Virus record (IMG/VR): IMGVR_UViG_3300034418_007369
Coordinates: 16,292 to 80,291 of that record
Length of the DNA: 64,000 nucleotides
Strand: one strand, 5' to 3'
Origin: a virus
A model generated the notes under the pieces. That model made no database searches. It had not been told where the DNA came from and saw only the letters and a program-made list of their open reading frames with translations. Shown here piece after piece: positions 3,189-49,199 of this stretch; the stretch's first letter is position 1, and each line of letters opens with the position of its first letter. The translations under genes and the position numbers were made by a program.

Positions 3189-3833
3189 ATGAAAACAAAA
3201 AAGAAGATATCTTGGGAAAGCTGGAACGCAAAAGTTGTAGAGTACTTGTCCCAAGATGAAGAAAAAGAAGCGGCTATTCAAGATGTCGAATTGTCTGAAT
3301 CGGAAAGCCAATTTTTTTTTCCGGTTCCACAAAGTAACGTACTCTACACTCCAATGGGGGCTTATCCTGAAGAATCAATGCTAAAACCATCGGACAGATG
3401 GGACTGCTGGACAGCCTCTACTAACTTTCCTATAACTAAAAAAATTGTAAACATACTAAATGAAGAGATTGATGGTGTCGAAGCTTTGAAAATCATGGGT
3501 AAATATTCATTTTTTATTGGTGTGGCTCAGATGTTTGACATAAGAGACGTGCGAAAACAAATAGATGAAAAAATTTGCTCTTATACCGAGAACGAGATAT
3601 TTGAGAATAATGAAATACAAGAAACTGTGAATTTATTAAAAAACCAGTTGAAAGATAATAATTTCTGGTCTATACTAGTATACCCAGAAGGTATGGTTGA
3701 ATATGTTGTTGCTAACGAAATTAATGCTGAATATCTTGACGCCTTGAGTTCGTTAATAGAAAAGAAAAATAACTTTGGTGGAATAATTTTGAGGAGTGAT
3801 AATGGACAGCAGAATGAACGAGCTTATGAGTGA
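3189..3833 (+). CDS. hypothetical protein
   Basis: 214-aa ORF with AGGA RBS, immediately upstream of the sigma factor. Confidence 0.7.
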   Translation: MKTKKKISWESWNAKVVEYLSQDEEKEAAIQDVELSESESQFFFPVPQSNVLYTPMGAYPEESMLKPSDRWDCWTASTNFPITKKIVNILNEEIDGVEALKIMGKYSFFIGVAQMFDIRDVRKQIDEKICSYTENEIFENNEIQETVNLLKNQLKDNNFWSILVYPEGMVEYVVANEINAEYLDALSSLIEKKNNFGGIILRSDNGQQNERAYE

Positions 3834-4263
3834 TCCTAATGTAGTAGGAATTATGAACGCGGTTGGCGCTAGATATAGGTCTATTGACCCAGATCAACTA
3901 GACTCAATTAAATTAAATACGCTTTGGGAGTGCGCCAAGAAATATGATCCCAAAAGAGGCACTAAATTTACTTCGTTTTTATATCAAAATCTAGTGTTCG
4001 CGTTTAAGAACGAGCTAAAAAAGAGAATCAGAGAGTTTCCAACGGAAACTATTGAGGCTAATACCCCGTCTAGAGCGTCTAGTCTTACGGACATTTTTGA
4101 TGGTATGCCAAAAGAATATGCATCGCTACTAGAACAGAAGTATGTATACAATATGACCATGAATGAAATCGGCAATCAAAATGGTTATAGTCGAGAAACG
4201 GCCAGAAGAAAAGTGGCGAAAGCGGTTAAATTTTATAAAAACAATAACAAGATTGAAATCTGA
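3802..4263 (+). CDS. phage RNA polymerase sigma-70 family factor (regions 2 and 4 only)
   Basis: LWECAKKYDPKRGTKFTSFLY (region 2) and YVYNMTMNEIGNQNGYSRETARR (region 4 HTH); GAGGAG RBS. Confidence 0.85.
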   Translation: MDSRMNELMSDPNVVGIMNAVGARYRSIDPDQLDSIKLNTLWECAKKYDPKRGTKFTSFLYQNLVFAFKNELKKRIREFPTETIEANTPSRASSLTDIFDGMPKEYASLLEQKYVYNMTMNEIGNQNGYSRETARRKVAKAVKFYKNNNKIEI

Positions 4264-4350: not shown

Positions 4351-5019
4351 ATGGCAGTTCCTAGTAGCAATAGCCACCTAGTCAATACTACTGGTGGATC
4401 GTTTTCGGCCCAATCTCAGGGCGGAACAATTCTTGGAAACATCACCACTGGCGGTGTTATCACTAGAGCTTCGTCACTCAAAGACAACGCTTCTGATTTC
4501 GGCAAGACTCCGGGGCCAGTAGAAGCAGCAAACGGCCTTGTTGCAAATACCAAGGCTTTGAGCGGCGGAACTTTCGCATATAGTTCGGCTGGCAACTATG
4601 TCATCCGTACAATTAGCACTACTCTTTCTGGCGTGGCTGGCACGAAAATGTTGATTCCGGGATCGGATTCCAACACTCGTCGCTCGATTCATCAGTTTGA
4701 ACACTCCTTTGGTGCTAAGACTTTGACCAAGTTTAGAGCTGGTCAGTACACCTTGACCGGAACCAAGGCAAACGGTTCGTCAAACCTCTCCAGACTAATC
4801 TGGTTGAACGCTGGCGGAACCGCTGCTCAGGCTCCAGTAGCATTGAACGAAAACATGCACGACATCGCGGATGGTGATGAAGCGGATAGAGCAGCAGACA
4901 GCGCTGCAAATCCAAGCAGAGCTATTCCGGGCGAATTGGTTATGAAAGTTGACTTCGTTACCACCAATGTAGCTTCTGGTGGCGACTTCTTCGATTACAA
5001 GCCAATCACTGGTAAGTAA
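4351..5019 (+). CDS. putative virion structural protein (G/S/A/T-rich)
   Basis: GGAG RBS; composition typical of virion proteins; has its own candidate promoter and terminator. Confidence 0.55.
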   Translation: MAVPSSNSHLVNTTGGSFSAQSQGGTILGNITTGGVITRASSLKDNASDFGKTPGPVEAANGLVANTKALSGGTFAYSSAGNYVIRTISTTLSGVAGTKMLIPGSDSNTRRSIHQFEHSFGAKTLTKFRAGQYTLTGTKANGSSNLSRLIWLNAGGTAAQAPVALNENMHDIADGDEADRAADSAANPSRAIPGELVMKVDFVTTNVASGGDFFDYKPITGK

Positions 5020-5045: not shown

Positions 5046-5079
5046 GGGGTTGGCGGCAATCGTTGCCAGCCCCTTTTTT
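5046..5079 (+). terminator. Rho-independent terminator
   Basis: GC-rich hairpin GGGGTTGGCGGCAATCGTTGCCAGCCCC followed by T6, downstream of the 4351-5019 gene. Confidence 0.85.
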
Positions 5080-5093
5080 CGCCAAGGTGTGAA

Positions 5094-5648
5094 ATGAGCA
5101 TTACCGATATATTAATTATGATAATTGAGGTTGTTATTATACCATTTTGCGTTTGGCTTGCGGCTCTTTTTTGGAAAAAAATTATAAAACCCGTGGCTAA
5201 AATGGTCAAGGGGCATGATTATTTAGTGTGTAGCATTAAAGAAATAAAACACGAACTAACTACCAATGGTGGATCGTCTATAAAAGATGCTATCAACAGA
5301 ATAGAAAGCAGGCAAATAACAGTAGACCATAGATCAAAAGCTATATTTTACAACTTTGAGCAGCCAATTTTTGAGATAAGTAGCACAGGAGATTTTCTTT
5401 GGTCAAATGAAAAATTCAAAGAGGCAACAGACCACAAAGAATTTAAAGGACTTGACTGGGTTAATATTGTAGATGAGCCAGAAAGACATCATGTGTTACA
5501 TGAGTTTGAATCTTGCTCAAAGGGCAACAGAGAAATAAAAATAAAAACTGTATCAATGGACGGTACATCTATATGTTTACACGGTTTCCCATATAGGGGA
5601 GAAAAGAAAAATCACGGTTTTTTAGTTTATTTAAAAATAGGAGAATGA
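5094..5648 (+). CDS. membrane-anchored PAS-domain protein
   Basis: N-terminal TM helix, coiled segment LTTNGGSSIKDAINRIE, then PAS pattern PIFEISSTGDFLWSNEKF...GLDWVNIVDEPERHHV. Confidence 0.7.
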   Translation: MSITDILIMIIEVVIIPFCVWLAALFWKKIIKPVAKMVKGHDYLVCSIKEIKHELTTNGGSSIKDAINRIESRQITVDHRSKAIFYNFEQPIFEISSTGDFLWSNEKFKEATDHKEFKGLDWVNIVDEPERHHVLHEFESCSKGNREIKIKTVSMDGTSICLHGFPYRGEKKNHGFLVYLKIGE

Positions 5649-5649
5649 A

Positions 5650-5859
5650 ATGGGTTCAGCTAAATTCAAATTGAACTGGTCTGACATTATCGGTGTTGGC
5701 AAAAATGCGGCTCTTGTTGGTGGCGCTGCCGCGCTTACCGTTGTTGCACAGAGTCTTGGGACTATCGACCTTGGAACATATGGCCCTCTTGTAGTTCCGA
5801 TTATCGCAGTAGGTCTTGATACTGCAATTAAATGGATGAAAAATAACGCAGCAGAATAG
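5650..5859 (+). CDS. small 2-TM membrane protein, holin-like
   Basis: 69 aa with two hydrophobic segments and a short charged C-terminus; GGAG RBS. Confidence 0.5.
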   Translation: MGSAKFKLNWSDIIGVGKNAALVGGAAALTVVAQSLGTIDLGTYGPLVVPIIAVGLDTAIKWMKNNAAE

Positions 5860-5868
5860 GACTATATC

Positions 5869-6792
5869 ATGGATTTTAAAACGCCACGCGAGCTTTTAAA
5901 CGCTTATCGTGAAGGATTTAAAGGCGCAGAGTGTGACAAAAAAGAAGTCGCAAAACTGCTTGGCGAGCTTAAAAATCCACTATTCGGAGCTGCCGCATAC
6001 CAATTATGGGGAGATGGAGAAGGGAAACTCTCTCTCCCGTTTAAATCTCTGTTAAAGTTCGACCCAAGTTTTGGGCCATCAGAACGTCAAACAACTGGCG
6101 ACTGCGTATCTCACGCCACTAGAAACGCTATAGACGTAACAAGAAGCGTAGAGATAGATATAAAGGGAGACATGGAGCAGTTTGTTGCCAGAGGTGCAAC
6201 AGAGGCCATCTACCAAAGCAGAGGACACAAAAAGCAAGGCATGATGTGTTCTACTGCTGCAAAATATGTTCATGAGCATGGGGGTATTGTATTAAGAAAA
6301 GATTACGGTATTGTCGATCTATCTAAATATGATTCAAGCCTTGGCGCTAAACATAAAATCCCTTTTGATATTTATACAAAAGAAGCAAGAAAGCACCAAG
6401 TTAAAACCATATCTTTAATCACAACTATACAGGAAGCGCGAGATGCGCTTGCTAATGGTTACGGTATCTCTGTCTGTTCTAGTTACGGCTTTTCTTCAAA
6501 GAGAGATAAATATGGAATAGCTAAACGTAGTGGTGGCTGGTCACATGCTATGGCTTGGATCGCCTGCGATGATACAGACGAAAGATACAAAGAGTCATTG
6601 TTTCTAGTACAGAATAGTTGGGGTAAATGGAATAGTGGCCCAAAATTCCATGAGCAGCCAGATGGTAGCTTTTGGATTAGAGAAAAAGACGCAAGAGGCA
6701 TGTTGGCTCAAAAGGGAGCTTGGGTGTTTAGCGATGTAGATGGATTTCCAGCAAGAGAACTACCGGATTACGGAACTACAAAATTTTTATAG
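5869..6792 (+). CDS. papain-family (C1A) cysteine peptidase
   Basis: QTTGDCVSH (oxyanion Gln and catalytic Cys), WSHAM (His), LVQNSWGKW (Asn). Confidence 0.88.
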   Translation: MDFKTPRELLNAYREGFKGAECDKKEVAKLLGELKNPLFGAAAYQLWGDGEGKLSLPFKSLLKFDPSFGPSERQTTGDCVSHATRNAIDVTRSVEIDIKGDMEQFVARGATEAIYQSRGHKKQGMMCSTAAKYVHEHGGIVLRKDYGIVDLSKYDSSLGAKHKIPFDIYTKEARKHQVKTISLITTIQEARDALANGYGISVCSSYGFSSKRDKYGIAKRSGGWSHAMAWIACDDTDERYKESLFLVQNSWGKWNSGPKFHEQPDGSFWIREKDARGMLAQKGAWVFSDVDGFPARELPDYGTTKFL

Positions 6793-6801
6793 GATAGAAA
6801 G

Positions 6802-7254
6802 ATGAAATATCTATCAACTTTGATTGTGCTTGTTTTATTTGTCGGATGCGCAGAAACAAAAAATAGTGAGTGGCAAAGCAACCCAGAATACAGAGCCTAT
6901 ATTGCAACAAGACTTGCCGATGCTATAATAGAGTATAACGTCATCACAGAAGAAGTTGTTGAAGAGGGCTGTGATGGTTCTGGCTGGATAACACAGGGGG
7001 ATGGACATAAAACGGAGTGTCCCGGATGCGATGCCTGTAAATCTGCTGGCGACATACCACAAATAGAATGGTCAACAGATACGCTACTAGACATTCCACA
7101 AATATTAGAAGAATTTAAAATTCCGATTGAGGAAGAGCCTGAGCCTGAAGTCATCATAGAACCAGAGCCAACACAAGAAATAATAGTCGAAGAAAAACCA
7201 ATAATTCAAACTAATCAAGATAGGTCAAGAGGACTATTTAGGAGACGTAGGTAA
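6802..7254 (+). CDS. putative lipoprotein with small Cys cluster and E/P-rich tail
   Basis: Signal peptide ending in lipobox-like LFVG-C; CDGSGWITQGDGHKTECPGCDAC; C-terminal RGLFRRRR. Confidence 0.6.
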   Translation: MKYLSTLIVLVLFVGCAETKNSEWQSNPEYRAYIATRLADAIIEYNVITEEVVEEGCDGSGWITQGDGHKTECPGCDACKSAGDIPQIEWSTDTLLDIPQILEEFKIPIEEEPEPEVIIEPEPTQEIIVEEKPIIQTNQDRSRGLFRRRR

Positions 7255-7583
7255 TGAGTATAGAAAATTTAGCAGAAAGAATATCAGAGAGCGCCCAGAA
7301 AAAAGATGGAAATTACGGTATTGACCCTATCACTATTAGTATTATAATATCTATCGTTACAAACCTAATAAAACTATGGTGGGCTTGTAAAGATAAACAA
7401 AGCATTAAAGGAGAACTACAAAATCCGTCTCTTATTTTTAAGGTCTTGTTAAAAAGAGAGATACGAAAACGCGCGCGAAGAGAAGATAGGACTGCACTCT
7501 ATGGGGCATTTTTAGATGTTGTTCCGGCGCTAACCGAACAGGAAATTAATGAAATTATAAAACAAATTGGAGAACAGGAATGA
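7254..7583 (+). CDS. hypothetical membrane-associated protein
   Basis: Hydrophobic IDPITISIIISIVTNLIKLWWAC; TAATG translational coupling. Confidence 0.65.
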   Translation: MSIENLAERISESAQKKDGNYGIDPITISIIISIVTNLIKLWWACKDKQSIKGELQNPSLIFKVLLKREIRKRARREDRTALYGAFLDVVPALTEQEINEIIKQIGEQE

Positions 7584-7855
7584 GTGAATTATTTAGTGCG
7601 TTGAGTGTATTTCAGTGGTTCATGCTTGGCATTGGGGCGTTTTTGATTGGGCCAGTTTTATTTAGCAAAATCTTAGATAGATATGTACATGGAAAGCCAG
7701 AGCCTCCACCTCTTCCGGGTGACGAGAGCCTCACTGACGTTGTAGAGTGCTGGGAAAATCTTAAAAAATTATGCAAGAGGCATGGATTAGCCGAGGCCGA
7801 ACAAGAAGTCCACAAAGTCTTTCCTCTTTTTGCAAAATCAAAGGATGTGCTATGA
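7580..7855 (+). CDS. hypothetical membrane protein
   Basis: N-terminal TM helix, Pro-rich linker; ATGA overlap. Confidence 0.65.
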   Translation: MSELFSALSVFQWFMLGIGAFLIGPVLFSKILDRYVHGKPEPPPLPGDESLTDVVECWENLKKLCKRHGLAEAEQEVHKVFPLFAKSKDVL

Positions 7856-8319
7856 GTGATAACCTTAGAATATTCTTAGCTTTAGTAGTTATTGTGGTTG
7901 GACTTTTTGGGGAAAAAGCTGCCGAATTTGTGAAAGATAACGTTGAAATTGTCGATGAGTCTGTGTATACTATCACTGAACCATCTTTGGAAAACAAAGA
8001 GCTTGTCAAGCCAATTACTGAGATTGAAATCTCCCCAGAAGATGCAAAACTAATTTCTTCATTTTATCTGGAATTAGCTGATGTAATTGACAAAGATGAT
8101 ACTATAATAGATTCTACAGGACAGTTTAGAAACCTAAACACTTTTGCCGGAGTGTTGCACTTTGATACATCTCTGTTAGGAAAATACGACTCTCTTGGAG
8201 AAAACATAGACTCGGCTATTGTTAATACTATTGGAAAACAGGACGCGCCTATGGATGACGACAAAAGAGATGACTTGATCGAAATACTAAATGCGGTAGC
8301 TTGGAGTGTCACCCAATGA
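7852..8319 (+). CDS. hypothetical protein with N-terminal membrane anchor
   Basis: ATG 7852 in an ATGA overlap; LRIFLALVVIVVGLF anchor followed by an acidic helical domain. Confidence 0.65.
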   Translation: MSDNLRIFLALVVIVVGLFGEKAAEFVKDNVEIVDESVYTITEPSLENKELVKPITEIEISPEDAKLISSFYLELADVIDKDDTIIDSTGQFRNLNTFAGVLHFDTSLLGKYDSLGENIDSAIVNTIGKQDAPMDDDKRDDLIEILNAVAWSVTQ

Positions 8320-8501
8320 TTATCAACAAAATTTTAGATGTCCTTCTTGACAAATATGACATTGAAAAAGAAGATGTTGATAAAGTCAAAAAGATTTTAG
8401 ATAAGGTGAGCTTTACAAAAAGAGATGGCAAAGATATAATGGTCATCAGTATAGGCGAAGGAATTGAGCTGTCTATAGTTCAGAAAAAAGAAGAAAAATA
8501 A
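8316..8501 (+). CDS. hypothetical protein
   Basis: GGAG RBS; ATGA overlap. Confidence 0.6.
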   Translation: MIINKILDVLLDKYDIEKEDVDKVKKILDKVSFTKRDGKDIMVISIGEGIELSIVQKKEEK

Positions 8502-22522: not shown

Positions 22523-23404
22523 GTGTCGCAGTTGATAGACCTAAAAAAAGACTTTGATTTGGGGAATAAATTTTTACTAGACGTAGCGTCAGAGCTATCT
22601 AACACTCTAGATGATAGTTATAGGGTTGTTATTAAGTATGATCTACAAGATTACAATATTCCAAAAGACGACAAGAAAAATATACTTTTTGCGCTGTCTA
22701 GAGAAACACATGAACTACCAAGATACACAGAAGACGAAAGGATTTTTCTTACGTTTCATAACTATGCTCCTTTAGACGCTTGGGGACATCCGATAAATCA
22801 TCCGAAAGTTGTGCCGCTGCCGCTTGGATTCTTTATAAATGATATGACCTCCAAGGTTGAAGAAATAAAGCCTCACGAAGATAGAGAATATGACTTCTGT
22901 TTCGTTGGACAGATACCGCATACCGGAACAAGAGATAAGTTTAAAAGATGTTTAGACAATATGCTAGAGCGCATAGGAAATAAATACAAATACTACGTCA
23001 AATATACTGAGTCTTTTGGTTGCGGCTTAGATCATCAAGAATATATTGACTTATTAAACAACTCAAAAATTTGCCTATGTCCGACTGGGGCATATAGTGA
23101 TGAGTCTTTTAGATTTTTTGAATCTATAGCTATGGGGGCGTTCCCTATGGTTGAAATGCTGCCAAGGTTTTGGTATTATGAACAGGCACCAATGTTTTTC
23201 GCTAAATGGCAATTCTTAGATAGCTTTCTAGAAAATTCTTTAAATTTTTTACGATCTGAAAATAAAAGAGTTGCACTTGAACAAATTGTAAACTACAATA
23301 ATACAATATTGAATACTGTCACCCTTTCTGGATTTTTGAAAAAGATAATTGATGAACAGCAAATACATACCAATAAATTGCAAGACCCACTTCAGTCTCC
23401 TTAA
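22523..23404 (+). CDS. exostosin-like (GT47) glycosyltransferase
   Basis: REYDFCFVG...R...YIDLLNNSKICLCPTG...SFRFFESIAMGAFP. Confidence 0.75.
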   Translation: MSQLIDLKKDFDLGNKFLLDVASELSNTLDDSYRVVIKYDLQDYNIPKDDKKNILFALSRETHELPRYTEDERIFLTFHNYAPLDAWGHPINHPKVVPLPLGFFINDMTSKVEEIKPHEDREYDFCFVGQIPHTGTRDKFKRCLDNMLERIGNKYKYYVKYTESFGCGLDHQEYIDLLNNSKICLCPTGAYSDESFRFFESIAMGAFPMVEMLPRFWYYEQAPMFFAKWQFLDSFLENSLNFLRSENKRVALEQIVNYNNTILNTVTLSGFLKKIIDEQQIHTNKLQDPLQSP

Positions 23405-24944
23405 AGGATTCTCTAATCCCGATAGACTAGCGAAACTGTGCGCTTCATATAACTATGGGGCGTGCGTTCTTGCTGATGTCAACACTCTTTCTGGCGCCGT
23501 GAACTTTCATCAGGCGTGTACGAAGAATGGCGTCAAGCCAATACTAGGACTAGACACAGAGCAATTCCTCCTAATTGCAAAGAATAAAGCTGGATGGCTA
23601 GACCTTATTAAATATTCTTCAGAAGAACAAGATATTGACACTCTGAAAAGAATAGCTGATAATGGCAACATTTTGTTTATAACAACAGAAGATAGTCCAG
23701 CCCAAAAGAAAATGTGGGGAAAGAATTATTTTTGTTATGATTATATTTCTGATGCGGTGTATTATTGCACCAAAGAAGAAGCAGAGCTACATAGAATCAT
23801 TCTGTGTTCTGGGATGAAAACCAGCATTCCGAAAGTTACGGCAAAGCTGCAAAAGGGAGAAGATTTTGAAAACAAACACTTCTTTACAAGTGAAGATTAT
23901 TGCTTAAAGCCGACAAGCAGAGTCACAGGTAATAAAAAATTATTTGACGCACTCGCTTCGTGCGAAGAGTATGAAATCACCGGAAAGCCAATGCTGCCAG
24001 AGTTTGATGTGCCTGAAGGGTTTGATAGTGATGAGTATCTTAAAGAGCTTTGTCGGCATGGTTGGAAATCTAAACTCGCCCCCGCTGGCAAAGTGTCCGA
24101 CCCAAAACAGAAAGAAATCTATCTGCAAAGAGTAAAGACTGAGCTTGAAGTTATCTTTAAGGCTAATCTTAGTGGTTATTTTTTGATCGTGCAAGATATT
24201 GTCAATTATGTTAAAAATCGTGGCTGGATCGCTGGTCCCGGTCGAGGATCTGCTGCCGGGTGTTTGATCTCTTATTTAGTTGGAATCACAGAAGTTGATC
24301 CAATTGAATTTGACTTACTCTTTGAGAGATTTTATAACGAGGGACGGAATACGGAAGATCACGTCTCGCTTCCAGATGTTGATATGGATGTTCCCGCAGA
24401 ACATCGAGACGAAGTAATTGACTACATTAAAGAAAAGTATGGAATTGATAAGGTCTCCCAGATGGTAACATTTGGTAAACTACAAGGTCGCGCGGCGATC
24501 AAAGAAGTTTTAAGAATCAATGATGCTGTATCTTTTTCTGAAATGAACGCTATTACAGATAGTATTCCAGATGAAGCTAAAATTTCTGACCAGCTAGAAC
24601 TCATGGAAGATAAGTCTATTATCAGATGGGCGCTAGAAAACGAATCAGAAGCGCTAAAGAGCTGGTGCTATTATGATGAAGAAGGAAACTTAGAAGGACC
24701 GCTATCAAGATATTTTGAACAAGCTATTAAAATTGAAGGAACAAATAAATCTCAGGGCAAACATGCTGCCGGTGTAATTATATCTAAACATCCACTAGCA
24801 GAGGTTTGTCCAATGGTTAAAGACAAGAATGGTAAAATGATTGCCGCGCTTGAGATGAATGACCTAGAGGCTATGGGTCATGTTAAGTTTGATGTTCTTG
24901 GAATTGACTTGTTAAGTAAAATTATGGAAATATGTGAGGATTAA
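23352..24944 (+). CDS. dnaE: DNA polymerase III alpha subunit, N-terminal half (degenerate PHP, palm, thumb)
   Basis: THFSLLKG, YFLIVQD, GPGRGSAAG, LLFERFYN, PDVDMD, GKHAAGV, KFDVLG; ends immediately after the third catalytic Asp motif. Confidence 0.93.
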   Translation: MNSKYIPINCKTHFSLLKGFSNPDRLAKLCASYNYGACVLADVNTLSGAVNFHQACTKNGVKPILGLDTEQFLLIAKNKAGWLDLIKYSSEEQDIDTLKRIADNGNILFITTEDSPAQKKMWGKNYFCYDYISDAVYYCTKEEAELHRIILCSGMKTSIPKVTAKLQKGEDFENKHFFTSEDYCLKPTSRVTGNKKLFDALASCEEYEITGKPMLPEFDVPEGFDSDEYLKELCRHGWKSKLAPAGKVSDPKQKEIYLQRVKTELEVIFKANLSGYFLIVQDIVNYVKNRGWIAGPGRGSAAGCLISYLVGITEVDPIEFDLLFERFYNEGRNTEDHVSLPDVDMDVPAEHRDEVIDYIKEKYGIDKVSQMVTFGKLQGRAAIKEVLRINDAVSFSEMNAITDSIPDEAKISDQLELMEDKSIIRWALENESEALKSWCYYDEEGNLEGPLSRYFEQAIKIEGTNKSQGKHAAGVIISKHPLAEVCPMVKDKNGKMIAALEMNDLEAMGHVKFDVLGIDLLSKIMEICED

Positions 24945-25161: not shown

Positions 25162-25857
25162 ATGGCGAACTATAGAGATATTATTGTTTTTGACTTTGAG
25201 ACCGGCGGCGCTAATCCATATACGTGTCAGCCAACTCAAATCGCGGCTGTGGCTATCCACGCTAGAAAGCTAGAGCTACAGCCCGGAGGCGTGTTTAACA
25301 GCGAGATTCGCCCTATTATCGACGACGATGAGGCCATTAAAGCGGGAGTCGGCCCGTTGGAGGAAGAGGCTCTGCGGGTAACGCGCAAAAACCGTGACGA
25401 CCTAGCAAAAGCACCTTTGCCCAAAACAGTATGGAAAAAGTTTGCTCAGTTTTGCGACAAATATAATTTTAAGAAAACTAATTATTATGCACCTATCGCT
25501 GCTGGCTATAATATCAATGGCTTTGATATGCCTATTGTGGAGAGAATGTGTCAACAATATGGTCCAACTCATGCAAAGAATGGCAGGCAGGGAATCTTTA
25601 ACCCTATTTTTACCATTGATGTAATGCAACATATTTACTGCTGGTTTGAAAACAATACAGAAGTAAAGGGATATGGTATGGATTACTTGCGCGACTATTT
25701 TGGAATGAGTCAGGCTAGTAAGGATAATGCTCACGATGCGTTGCAAGACGTTAAGGATACCGCTAATATCATGATTAAGTTCATGAAATTGCAAAGAACA
25801 TTGCTACATAAAGTTAAATTTGAAAAAACATTTGCGAACGGGGATATTTATGTCTAA
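25162..25857 (+). CDS. dnaQ: DEDDh 3'-5' exonuclease (DnaQ/epsilon-like)
   Basis: ExoI VFDFETGG, ExoII AGYNINGFD, ExoIII HDALQD. Confidence 0.88.
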   Translation: MANYRDIIVFDFETGGANPYTCQPTQIAAVAIHARKLELQPGGVFNSEIRPIIDDDEAIKAGVGPLEEEALRVTRKNRDDLAKAPLPKTVWKKFAQFCDKYNFKKTNYYAPIAAGYNINGFDMPIVERMCQQYGPTHAKNGRQGIFNPIFTIDVMQHIYCWFENNTEVKGYGMDYLRDYFGMSQASKDNAHDALQDVKDTANIMIKFMKLQRTLLHKVKFEKTFANGDIYV

Positions 25858-27391
25858 ATTTGACATTAATAATTTTGAAGATGAAGAAGTTTGGGATTTG
25901 ATTTGCGAAGGACGCACAAAGGGCGTTTTTCAACTTGAGTCTAGCCTTGGTAAGCATTGGGCTAAAGAAGTCAAACCCAGAAGCATCAGTGAATTAGCGG
26001 CTCTTATTTCGTTGATTCGTCCCGGCTGTTTGAAGGCTTACACAGATGGTAAATCCATGACACAGCACTATGCGGATAGAAAAAAGGGAACTGATGCTGT
26101 TGATTACCCAGATGATTCTTTGGAGCCTATTCTAAAAGGAACCTATGGTGTTTTGGTATACCAAGAGCAAAGCATGAAAATCGCCCAGCAACTAGCTGGG
26201 TTTGACCTTAAAGAAGCTGATTCGCTTCGTAAGGCTATTGGTAAAAAGAAAGCTGAACTCATGGAAGAAATGAAACAGGTCTTTATGGATGGCGCCGAAA
26301 AGCAGGGGATTATCAAGAAGGAAGTGGCGGGAGAGATTTTTTCATGGATCGAGAAGTCTAACCGCTACGCCTTCAACAAAAGTCACGCTGTTTCATATGC
26401 TATTGATGCATACTGGAGCGCGTACTGTAAATGTCATAGATTAGAGAGGTTTTACGTGAGTTACATGAATCGCTCTGACCGTAAGCCAAAGCCTGAGATT
26501 GAGCTAAAACAGCTTATCATGGATGCTAAGATGCATGGGCTAGACACCTATCCGCCAAGGCTTAATCACATGCACACAAATTTTCTACATGAGAATGGTA
26601 AAATTTATTTTGGTATGAGGCACATTAAAAATGTAGGCACGAAAGAGTGTGATAAAATTGAAGAATTAAAACAAACAGAAGATTTGTCTTTGTTTACTTG
26701 GATGGATTGTCTTATCAAGATTGTTCACCGTACCAAGATCAACAAGCGAGCGGCAATTGCTATGATTTCTGTTGGTGCGTTTAATGGCAAGAACAATAGA
26801 GAGTCTCGCCAGAAAATGCTGTATGAATATGATAGCTGGAATAATCTTTCTGCAAGAGAAAAAGATGCCATCGCTGATAATTACAAAAGTAATTTAACTT
26901 TGGCTCAGTGTGTAGACCTGCTATCAGACTGGGTTAAGATTAATTCTAGAAGGGCGCAAGCGATAGAGGACATCAAGCAGTCTCTCATTTCGCCATTCTA
27001 TAGCCTAGATGACGATCCCGCCTCTATTGCAGATTATGAAATTAAATTAATGGGGTGTGCCTTGACATGCAGTAAGGCAGATTCTATAAATATTTCTACA
27101 AATATGTGCAAAGATGTGACACAGGGTACTATAAGAGGTAAGGTAAATCTTTCTGTGATGATTAATTCTATCCGTACCTATAAAACTAAAAAGGGAAAGA
27201 ATCCCGGCCAAGAGATGGCTTTTTTGTGTATTGAAGACGCGAGCGGCGAACTGGATTCCGTTACAATTTTTCCAGAAGCATTTATAAAATATAAAGATTT
27301 ATTGATAGAAAGAAACACTGTCTTCATAGATGGTGAGGTTTCTAAGAGGGATAAAAATTCCATCGTTGTTAATAAAGTTATACAAGTTTGA
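25850..27391 (+). CDS. dnaE: DNA polymerase III alpha subunit, C-terminal half (fingers, HhH, OB fold)
   Basis: GVFQLES, LIRPG, YGVLVYQEQ, ADSLRKAIGKK, YAFNKSHA, FGMRHIKNVG, and OB fold MAFLCIEDASG...TIFP. Confidence 0.93.
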   Translation: MSKFDINNFEDEEVWDLICEGRTKGVFQLESSLGKHWAKEVKPRSISELAALISLIRPGCLKAYTDGKSMTQHYADRKKGTDAVDYPDDSLEPILKGTYGVLVYQEQSMKIAQQLAGFDLKEADSLRKAIGKKKAELMEEMKQVFMDGAEKQGIIKKEVAGEIFSWIEKSNRYAFNKSHAVSYAIDAYWSAYCKCHRLERFYVSYMNRSDRKPKPEIELKQLIMDAKMHGLDTYPPRLNHMHTNFLHENGKIYFGMRHIKNVGTKECDKIEELKQTEDLSLFTWMDCLIKIVHRTKINKRAAIAMISVGAFNGKNNRESRQKMLYEYDSWNNLSAREKDAIADNYKSNLTLAQCVDLLSDWVKINSRRAQAIEDIKQSLISPFYSLDDDPASIADYEIKLMGCALTCSKADSINISTNMCKDVTQGTIRGKVNLSVMINSIRTYKTKKGKNPGQEMAFLCIEDASGELDSVTIFPEAFIKYKDLLIERNTVFIDGEVSKRDKNSIVVNKVIQV

Positions 27392-49188: not shown

Positions 49189-49199
49189 ATATACACAAT
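49189..49199 (-). promoter_or_regulatory. candidate phage late promoter motif ATTGTGTATAT
   Basis: Reverse complement of ATATACACAAT; intergenic, 20 nt upstream of ATG 49168; identical to 4264-4274. Confidence 0.5.

Follow-up and report, generated by a model that had tools for sequence, protein, structure and literature searches.

A papain-fold peptidase in a conserved gene block of a large tailed phage lineage, a possible latent lysis effector

We analysed a window of 64,000 nucleotides (nt) of viral DNA, bases 16292-80291 of the 80,291-nt IMG/VR record IMGVR_UViG_3300034418_007369 (estimated completeness of the record, 52%), in which a run of coupled plus-strand genes at 5094-8501 surrounds a gene for a papain-fold cysteine peptidase. 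This cassette is real, conserved and phage-specific, and our literature searches found no paper describing it. We give even chances to the reading that 5094-8501 serves a large tailed phage of a diderm host as its lysis cassette, for opening the envelope, with the papain-fold enzyme as the latent effector.

The gene at 5869-6792 encodes a protein of 307 amino acids (aa) that, on its AlphaFold (AF2) model, has a papain fold, with a helical left lobe and a barrel right lobe, shows the Gln-Cys-His-Asn order of catalytic residues and is a predicted peptidase. The model has a predicted local distance difference test score (pLDDT) of 93.7 and a predicted template modelling score (pTM) of 0.93. Its best Foldseek match is xylellain (E 7e-11), and xylellain again heads the VIA comparison (Z 21.6, 232 residues aligned, root-mean-square deviation 2.9), with C1A enzymes next; at Z >= 8 VIA returned 330 chains, and all the matches listed are C1A enzymes. 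Profile comparison points the same way. The family profile reaches caricain in the PDB at E 9e-5 and xylellain across residues 68-272, and the blocks around the Cys and the His/Asn align with those of caricain. Across an alignment of 50 sequences reaching down to 32% identity, Gln74, Cys79, His226 and Trp251 are invariant, 90% or more of the sequences have Asn249, and Ser250 is nearly invariant.

The first reading of this DNA, made from the sequence only, had named the protein a C1A cysteine peptidase. Fold and catalytic residues agree with that reading, but PF00112 gives no match to the window peptidase at E <= 0.1. Only three of 50 family members match PF00112 at E <= 0.01 (best 3.6e-4), and we therefore treat the family as a remote, separate C1-like family and not as part of the Pfam family. 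When used directly as the query, the peptidase had no match in Pfam, in PHROGs, among PDB sequences or in a set of 50,697 phage records, and it matches none of the catalytic classes of phage endolysins that were searched (lysozyme, amidase, transglycosylase, M15, M23, CHAP or NlpC/P60). The family is nonetheless large, with 1518 matches when clustered at 90% and 1381 representatives when clustered at 50% identity, and the Atlas clusters nearest to the window peptidase are 91-100% viral.

The N-terminus of the peptidase is not hydrophobic, which bears out the earlier observation that an obvious signal peptide is lacking. In VIA, zymogens align with the model from residue 4-5 and mature enzymes from about residue 31-51 only, which suggests that the first ~50 residues correspond to the end of a propeptide; this N-terminal segment is conserved. 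The peptidase may thus be latent. We propose that it would be made in the cytoplasm in latent form, with the ~50-residue segment resembling the part of a C1A propeptide that lies over the active-site cleft.

The genes around the peptidase form a compact unit. The sequence-only reading had described an operon, placed after a terminator, of a holin-like protein, the peptidase, a lipoprotein and three membrane-anchored proteins, and the open reading frame (ORF) list and hydropathy confirm all of these genes, on the plus strand and tightly coupled by overlaps of 1 or 4 nt or gaps of 2-9 nt. The intrinsic terminator is also real (5046-5073, plus strand; a 12-bp stem with 8 GC pairs and a T-run, 3' of a Gly/Ser/Thr-rich gene and the only strong terminator there), but it precedes a further coupled gene at 5094-5648 and not the 69-aa gene, so that the unit begins at 5094. 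This first gene starts 20 nt past the terminator and encodes a 184-aa protein with an N-terminal transmembrane (TM) helix, by hydropathy, and a PAS-like domain (PAS_9, E 8e-5, 23.3 bits, under the cut-off of 27). The 69-aa gene (5650-5859) begins 2 nt past its end and is followed by the peptidase gene, the gene for an exported protein with a Cys4 cluster (6802-7254, 150 aa) and three genes for the membrane-anchored proteins read earlier, with one TM helix each. In the 109-aa product of 7254-7583 this helix is internal and the C-terminal part is basic, the 91-aa product of 7580-7855 has an N-terminal anchor, and in the 155-aa product of 7852-8319 the TM helix is N-terminal and the acidic ectodomain is modelled as a helical bundle. 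The block probably ends near 8501 with a small soluble protein (8316-8501), the ORF of which is listed from a TTG at 8301; its ATG at 8316 overlaps the preceding stop.

This gene order recurs in related phages and is no product of chance. Among 80 related IMG/VR loci, the block occurs in three arrangements, and about 40 of the 80 keep the order seen here, namely homologues of the PAS gene, the 69-aa gene, the peptidase, the Cys-rich exported protein and the 7254, 7580, 7852 and 8301 proteins; the conservation of order on which the earlier reading depended is thus found. In the second arrangement the peptidase block lies upstream of the sigma-factor cluster and in the third it follows the genes for ribonucleotide reductase (RNR). 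Common to all three are the peptidase, an anchored Cys-rich protein and a homologue of the 7580 protein, which is the most widespread partner of the peptidase (57 of the 80 loci, in all three arrangements). A 7852 homologue, either separate or fused to the Cys-rich protein, is found in most loci of the three groups, and in the contigs L097 and L098, where the peptidase is just 55% identical, it lies directly upstream of the peptidase gene. Other members are less general: the PAS gene precedes the 69-aa gene at 38 of the 80 loci, homologues of 8301/8316 occupy the same place at 38, and 7254 homologues occur at 31. That the peptidase keeps the same partners across arrangements suggests that the block acts as one functional unit.

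The 69-aa protein (type A) has two weak hydrophobic stretches, is holin-like by architecture only, and is 50-75% identical in more distant relatives. Loci that lack its gene carry within the block a gene for a two-TM protein of 57-62 aa (type B), and the best matches of type B, from four divergent members, are three PHROG holin families (phrog_9987, E 5e-5; phrog_297, E 7e-4; phrog_4712, E 4e-3). To count as a holin, a protein had to be small, to have one or more TM helices and a polar C-terminus, and in addition to match a holin family or to be shown to form lesions. Types A and B are mutually exclusive in the loci examined, a pattern that would fit non-orthologous holin replacement. On the lysis reading, the small two-TM protein, the 69-aa one here and the PHROG-holin-like one elsewhere, would permeabilise the inner membrane, presumably late in infection, and so let the peptidase out.

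The same proteins bear on the idea that the block is directed at the envelope without lysing the cell, processing exported phage or host proteins (maturation of Tat-exported proteins, removal of a receptor, superinfection exclusion). The block does sit among sigma-factor, RNR and replication genes, its first gene has the sensor-like look of a TM-PAS protein, and the peptidase is very highly conserved, all of which would suit such a role. However, since the peptidase has no signal peptide, a membrane lesion would be needed for it to reach the envelope, the relatives have holin-family matches inside the block, and this explanation would leave the phage without a nameable lysis function. We consider it unlikely.

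Under the lysis reading the peptidase, once in the periplasm, would meet the Cys4 lipoprotein, the 7580 protein and the 7852 protein. The 6802-7254 product has the features first read in it, a lipoprotein signal that ends in FVGC (a loose lipobox), a Cys4 cluster and a Glu/Pro-rich tail. This protein and more than 20 relatives share the near-invariant motif C-D-G-S-G-W-I-x-x-G-D-G-H-x-T-x-C-P-G-C-x-x-C, possibly forming a zinc knuckle or a CxxC site with a redox role; the protein has weak matches to PHROGs of unknown function. Two-component spanins consist of an outer-membrane lipoprotein and a type II inner-membrane protein with a periplasmic coiled coil. Only about 7-11 of 23 motif-bearing relatives are lipoproteins, the rest having plain signal peptides, and a strict spanin reading is therefore unsupported. 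The AF2 model of the 7852 protein (pLDDT 83) has a TM helix and a compact helical bundle, with no coiled coil. Of the likeness to holin-endolysin-spanin cassettes drawn by the sequence-only reading, the conserved block and the holin-matching small gene of the relatives stand, but the analogy with spanins is weak. We also considered the 7852-8319 product as a hidden signal-anchored lysozyme and rejected it, as its helical bundle gives generic matches only (best Foldseek E 1.1, best VIA Z 6.3).

Guided by these partners, the peptidase would then cut peptide bonds on which the cohesion of the wall depends, whether in the stem peptides or cross-links of peptidoglycan or in wall and tether proteins. 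The lysis reading gains weight from the searches for other wall enzymes. We searched 18 Pfam families of peptidoglycan hydrolases and wall-binding modules in four relatives that are 100, 100, 100 and 94% complete, with several families extended to up to 11 records that include this contig; the positive control, DnaB_C, was found in five of five records. None of Phage_lysozyme, SLT, GH25, GH108, GH19, Glucosaminidase and Lysozyme_like rose above threshold in the four relatives, where the GH108 and GH19 negatives, like that for S77, are uninformative because their controls were silent. There was likewise no above-threshold match in the four for Amidase_2 or Amidase_3, for M15_4, M15_3, VanY, M23, CHAP or NlpC/P60, or for Hydrolase_2, PG_binding_1 or LysM. 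The original remark that the window has no recognisable amidase, lysozyme, M15 or M23 domain thus extends, for the families searched, to the whole 80-kb contig and to complete relatives, and the search for a canonical endolysin elsewhere returned none in the four relatives of at least 94% completeness. The only wall-binding-like signal in the relatives is a sub-threshold LysM-like fragment (15 bits, E 0.005) in a 1544-aa ORF (G002:C1:25380-25463; L099).

A different division of labour would have an unrecognised muralytic endolysin encoded elsewhere and the peptidase block acting as an accessory lysis factor on outer-membrane tethers or a protein layer. LysB and spanins handle other envelope layers in other phages, C1A enzymes normally cut proteins, and the block includes exported and anchored proteins. 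Moreover, most genes of the complete relatives are without annotation, and only 48 of 116 called ORFs have a homologue in the relative G001, so an unrecognised enzyme is possible. Against this stand the four relatives, at least 94% complete, in which all 18 families, wall-binding modules included, stayed below threshold, and the model of 7852-8319, the one candidate whose fold was examined, which shows nothing more than a helical bundle. We hold the accessory role to be unlikely.

The relatives also speak to the suggestion that the peptidase matures virions, as viral cysteine proteases do in adenoviruses and poxviruses. In G001 a ClpP-like head maturation protease of 218 aa (phrog_94, E 3.9e-38) adjoins the terminase gene, and PF00574 was found in five of five relatives. 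The papain-fold gene is on the opposite strand and far from the structural genes. The presence of the ClpP-like protease beside the terminase argues that the papain-fold peptidase is not the head maturation protease, one of the outcomes that the earlier reading had named against itself, and we regard a maturation role as very improbable.

Several observations weigh against a lysis cassette. The sequence-only reading had spoken of a holin-like two-TM protein, and the two weak hydrophobic stretches are present, but the 69-aa protein matches no Pfam or PHROG holin family, and homology between types A and B is not detectable (hhalign probability 2.8%). The block adjoins sigma-factor, RNR, dUTPase and replication genes and not the terminase. 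No cleavage of peptidoglycan by C1A peptidases is known, and Pfam searches leave room for a muralytic enzyme of unknown fold. No wall-binding fusion was seen among the longer homologues of the peptidase, for which all listed forms with a Pfam domain have intein or homing-endonuclease domains only. The peptidase is the most conserved of the 48 proteins shared with G001, at 73% identity, the next being 66%; DnaB (53%) and the DnaE halves (43-53%) are below it. A lysis enzyme would not usually be the best conserved protein, and we can account for this only in part. Finally, inteins occur in at least 160 peptidase clusters, which is unusual for lysis enzymes.

These inteins account for the length of many peptidase homologues, which reach 440-1040 aa owing to Hint and LAGLIDADG inserts; N-terminally extended homologues (P0166 type) have no Pfam domains. 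Junction mapping places the inserts at three sites, of which the first directly precedes Cys79, the second directly follows His226 and the third comes after Asn249 (codons 79, 226/227 and 249/250; homologues P0121, P0126, P0129, P0123 and P0134). Some homologues carry two inteins, and the window copy carries none. At the first site the catalytic nucleophile doubles as the +1 residue of splicing. The position of the inteins at Cys79, His226 and Asn249 independently marks the triad as a constrained core, and the family offers a clear case from nature of inteins that have homed into active sites. Gene conversion during homing may explain the high conservation of the peptidase.

Many inteins and the highest conservation in the genome, as in core enzymes, would equally suit a cytoplasmic protease that serves host takeover, anti-defence or the recycling of host proteins, with neighbouring membrane genes that are unrelated in function, and so would the absence of a signal peptide. 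Yet in spite of three rearrangements the peptidase gene keeps its membrane-protein neighbours, and the linkage persists to 55% identity with the 7852 homologue directly beside the peptidase. A purely cytoplasmic role therefore seems improbable to us.

The setting is that of a large phage. The window encodes a sigma-70-type factor, a class II RNR, a dUTPase, a UvsX-like recombinase, DnaB, a primase and many glycosyltransferases, and its large structural proteins are on the minus strand. Its DnaB has a nearest match of only 27% identity among the 50,697 phage records, which indicates a lineage from which no member has been cultured. Its complete relatives measure 130,845 to 172,984 nt, two of them with terminal repeats, and the terminase large subunit and ClpP-like head protease encoded by G001 identify the clade as tailed phages. 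The DNA runs that contain the stretch are labelled freshwater, and many peptidase homologues come from marine surveys. As for the host, bins of metagenome-assembled genomes (MAGs) that hold near-whole clade contigs (L092-L095, L097 and L098; up to 152,655 nt) carry the labels Flavobacteriales, SAR202, Promethearchaeota and Alphaproteobacteria. Since these labels conflict, the contigs are probably misbinned phage contigs, and we set the bins aside as a guide to the host.

Two further features of this genome were noted. The gene for a DNA polymerase of the III alpha type (DnaE) is split into two genes at 23349-24944 and 25820-27391 of the window, with two ORFs between them and with the halves matching phrog_405. 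In the 16 kb of the record upstream of the window there is a permuted transfer-messenger RNA (tmRNA) of the two-piece type (L002 9058-9371; Rfam tmRNA_permuted, 93.5 bits) with the tag ADESLALAA, overlapped by a tRNA-Glu.

Hints on expression come from the assembled contigs of four metatranscriptome runs, which are 95-99% alike and show presence only. These contigs cover the Gly/Ser/Thr-rich gene (4351-5019, plus strand; 222 aa, without any family match), and in three or four runs they bridge the terminator at 5046-5073. A contig of 723 nt starts in the PAS gene, spans the 69-aa gene and reaches into the peptidase gene. In all four runs the contigs end at 5901-5953, no more than ~85 nt into the peptidase gene, and coverage returns only near 7590; 5996-6800, and more broadly the body of the peptidase gene together with the lipoprotein gene (5996-7580), are nearly uncovered. 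No hairpin was found at 5880-6030 (z -1.75). The Gly/Ser/Thr-rich gene has the highest contig depth in the RNA libraries, which suggests that its product is probably an abundant late protein.

A motif, TGTGTATA(A/T), lies 26-85 nt upstream of many genes of the structural region of G001 (51-121 kb, minus strand) and is a candidate phage late promoter. Its sites in the window are at 49197 on the minus strand and at 2824 and 4266 on the plus strand, the last belonging to the Gly/Ser/Thr-rich gene. The phage sigma factor (window 3796-4263) may read TGTGTATA. Upstream of the block the motif is not kept in most relatives.

A broader claim can be put forward tentatively, and we think it somewhat less probable than the lysis reading of the block itself: that this is a widespread aquatic phage clade without any muralytic enzyme, whose members lyse by means of a holin-released, latent papain-type protease guided by exported partners. 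If so, both the class of lysis enzyme and the route of lysis would be new for phages. To our knowledge, every well-studied tailed phage breaks peptidoglycan by a dedicated endopeptidase, an amidase or a glycosidase. In the present clade a phage protein family of very large size, with 1381 clusters at 50% identity and no cultured homologue among the 50,697 records, stands in the place of the endolysin. If a C1-type protease does breach the wall, the known chemistry of phage lysis would be widened. Either an abundant aquatic host would then have some particular wall feature, or the papain fold would be capable of cutting peptidoglycan, an activity new for it. A new enzyme class would also become available for study.

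The closest structural counterparts of the peptidase are xylellain of Xylella fastidiosa (PDB 3OIS), procathepsins B, K and L, and propapain, all of which have the same two-lobed papain fold. The phage enzyme shares with them the Gln-Cys-His-Asn order, the Asn-Ser-Trp-Gly motif and an N-terminal segment that aligns with the cleft-covering propeptide. Unlike them, it is only 13-20% identical, has no PF00112 match and lacks a signal peptide; its N-terminal segment is conserved and not disposable, and its gene is embedded among membrane-protein genes. Two further C1A enzymes, Cwp84 of Clostridioides difficile (PDB 4CI7) and baculovirus V-cathepsin, have cell-surface or host structural proteins as targets. 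Cwp84 aligns with the peptidase at Z 17.6, and viral cathepsins are among the BFVD matches of the peptidase. Both differ in being secreted with signal peptides and removable propeptides, outside any phage membrane-protein cassette. Some phage proteins with a C1 fold are entered in BFVD as 'Peptidoglycan binding-like' and 'N acetylmuramidase', names only, which we take as a lead.

Among enzymes used against the wall, the endolysin domains CHAP, NlpC/P60 and N5 offer the nearest parallel, and N5, which belongs to the papain superfamily and is part of mycobacteriophage Lysin A, is a precedent (PMC3314691). These domains share with the phage peptidase a Cys-His catalysis of the clan-CA type. They are, however, short domains within multidomain lysins that also have glycosidase or amidase and wall-binding modules, whereas the phage enzyme is free-standing and belongs to the C1 type. 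At the level of the gene block, the resemblance is to the holin-endolysin-spanin cassettes found in phages of diderm bacteria, of the lambda S-R-Rz/Rz1 type, in which a small two-TM protein lies beside a signal-less enzyme, followed by genes for anchored proteins and lipoproteins. As in those cassettes, the genes here are translationally coupled and the block moves as a unit, and these are the only lysis-like genes found in these genomes. In contrast to lambda-type cassettes, five to six partner genes are present, lipoprotein status is not conserved, no coiled-coil i-spanin is seen and the block lies away from the packaging genes. The enzyme itself marks the main departure, being a papain-fold peptidase in a position that lambda-type cassettes give to a glycosidase, an amidase or a known peptidoglycan endopeptidase.

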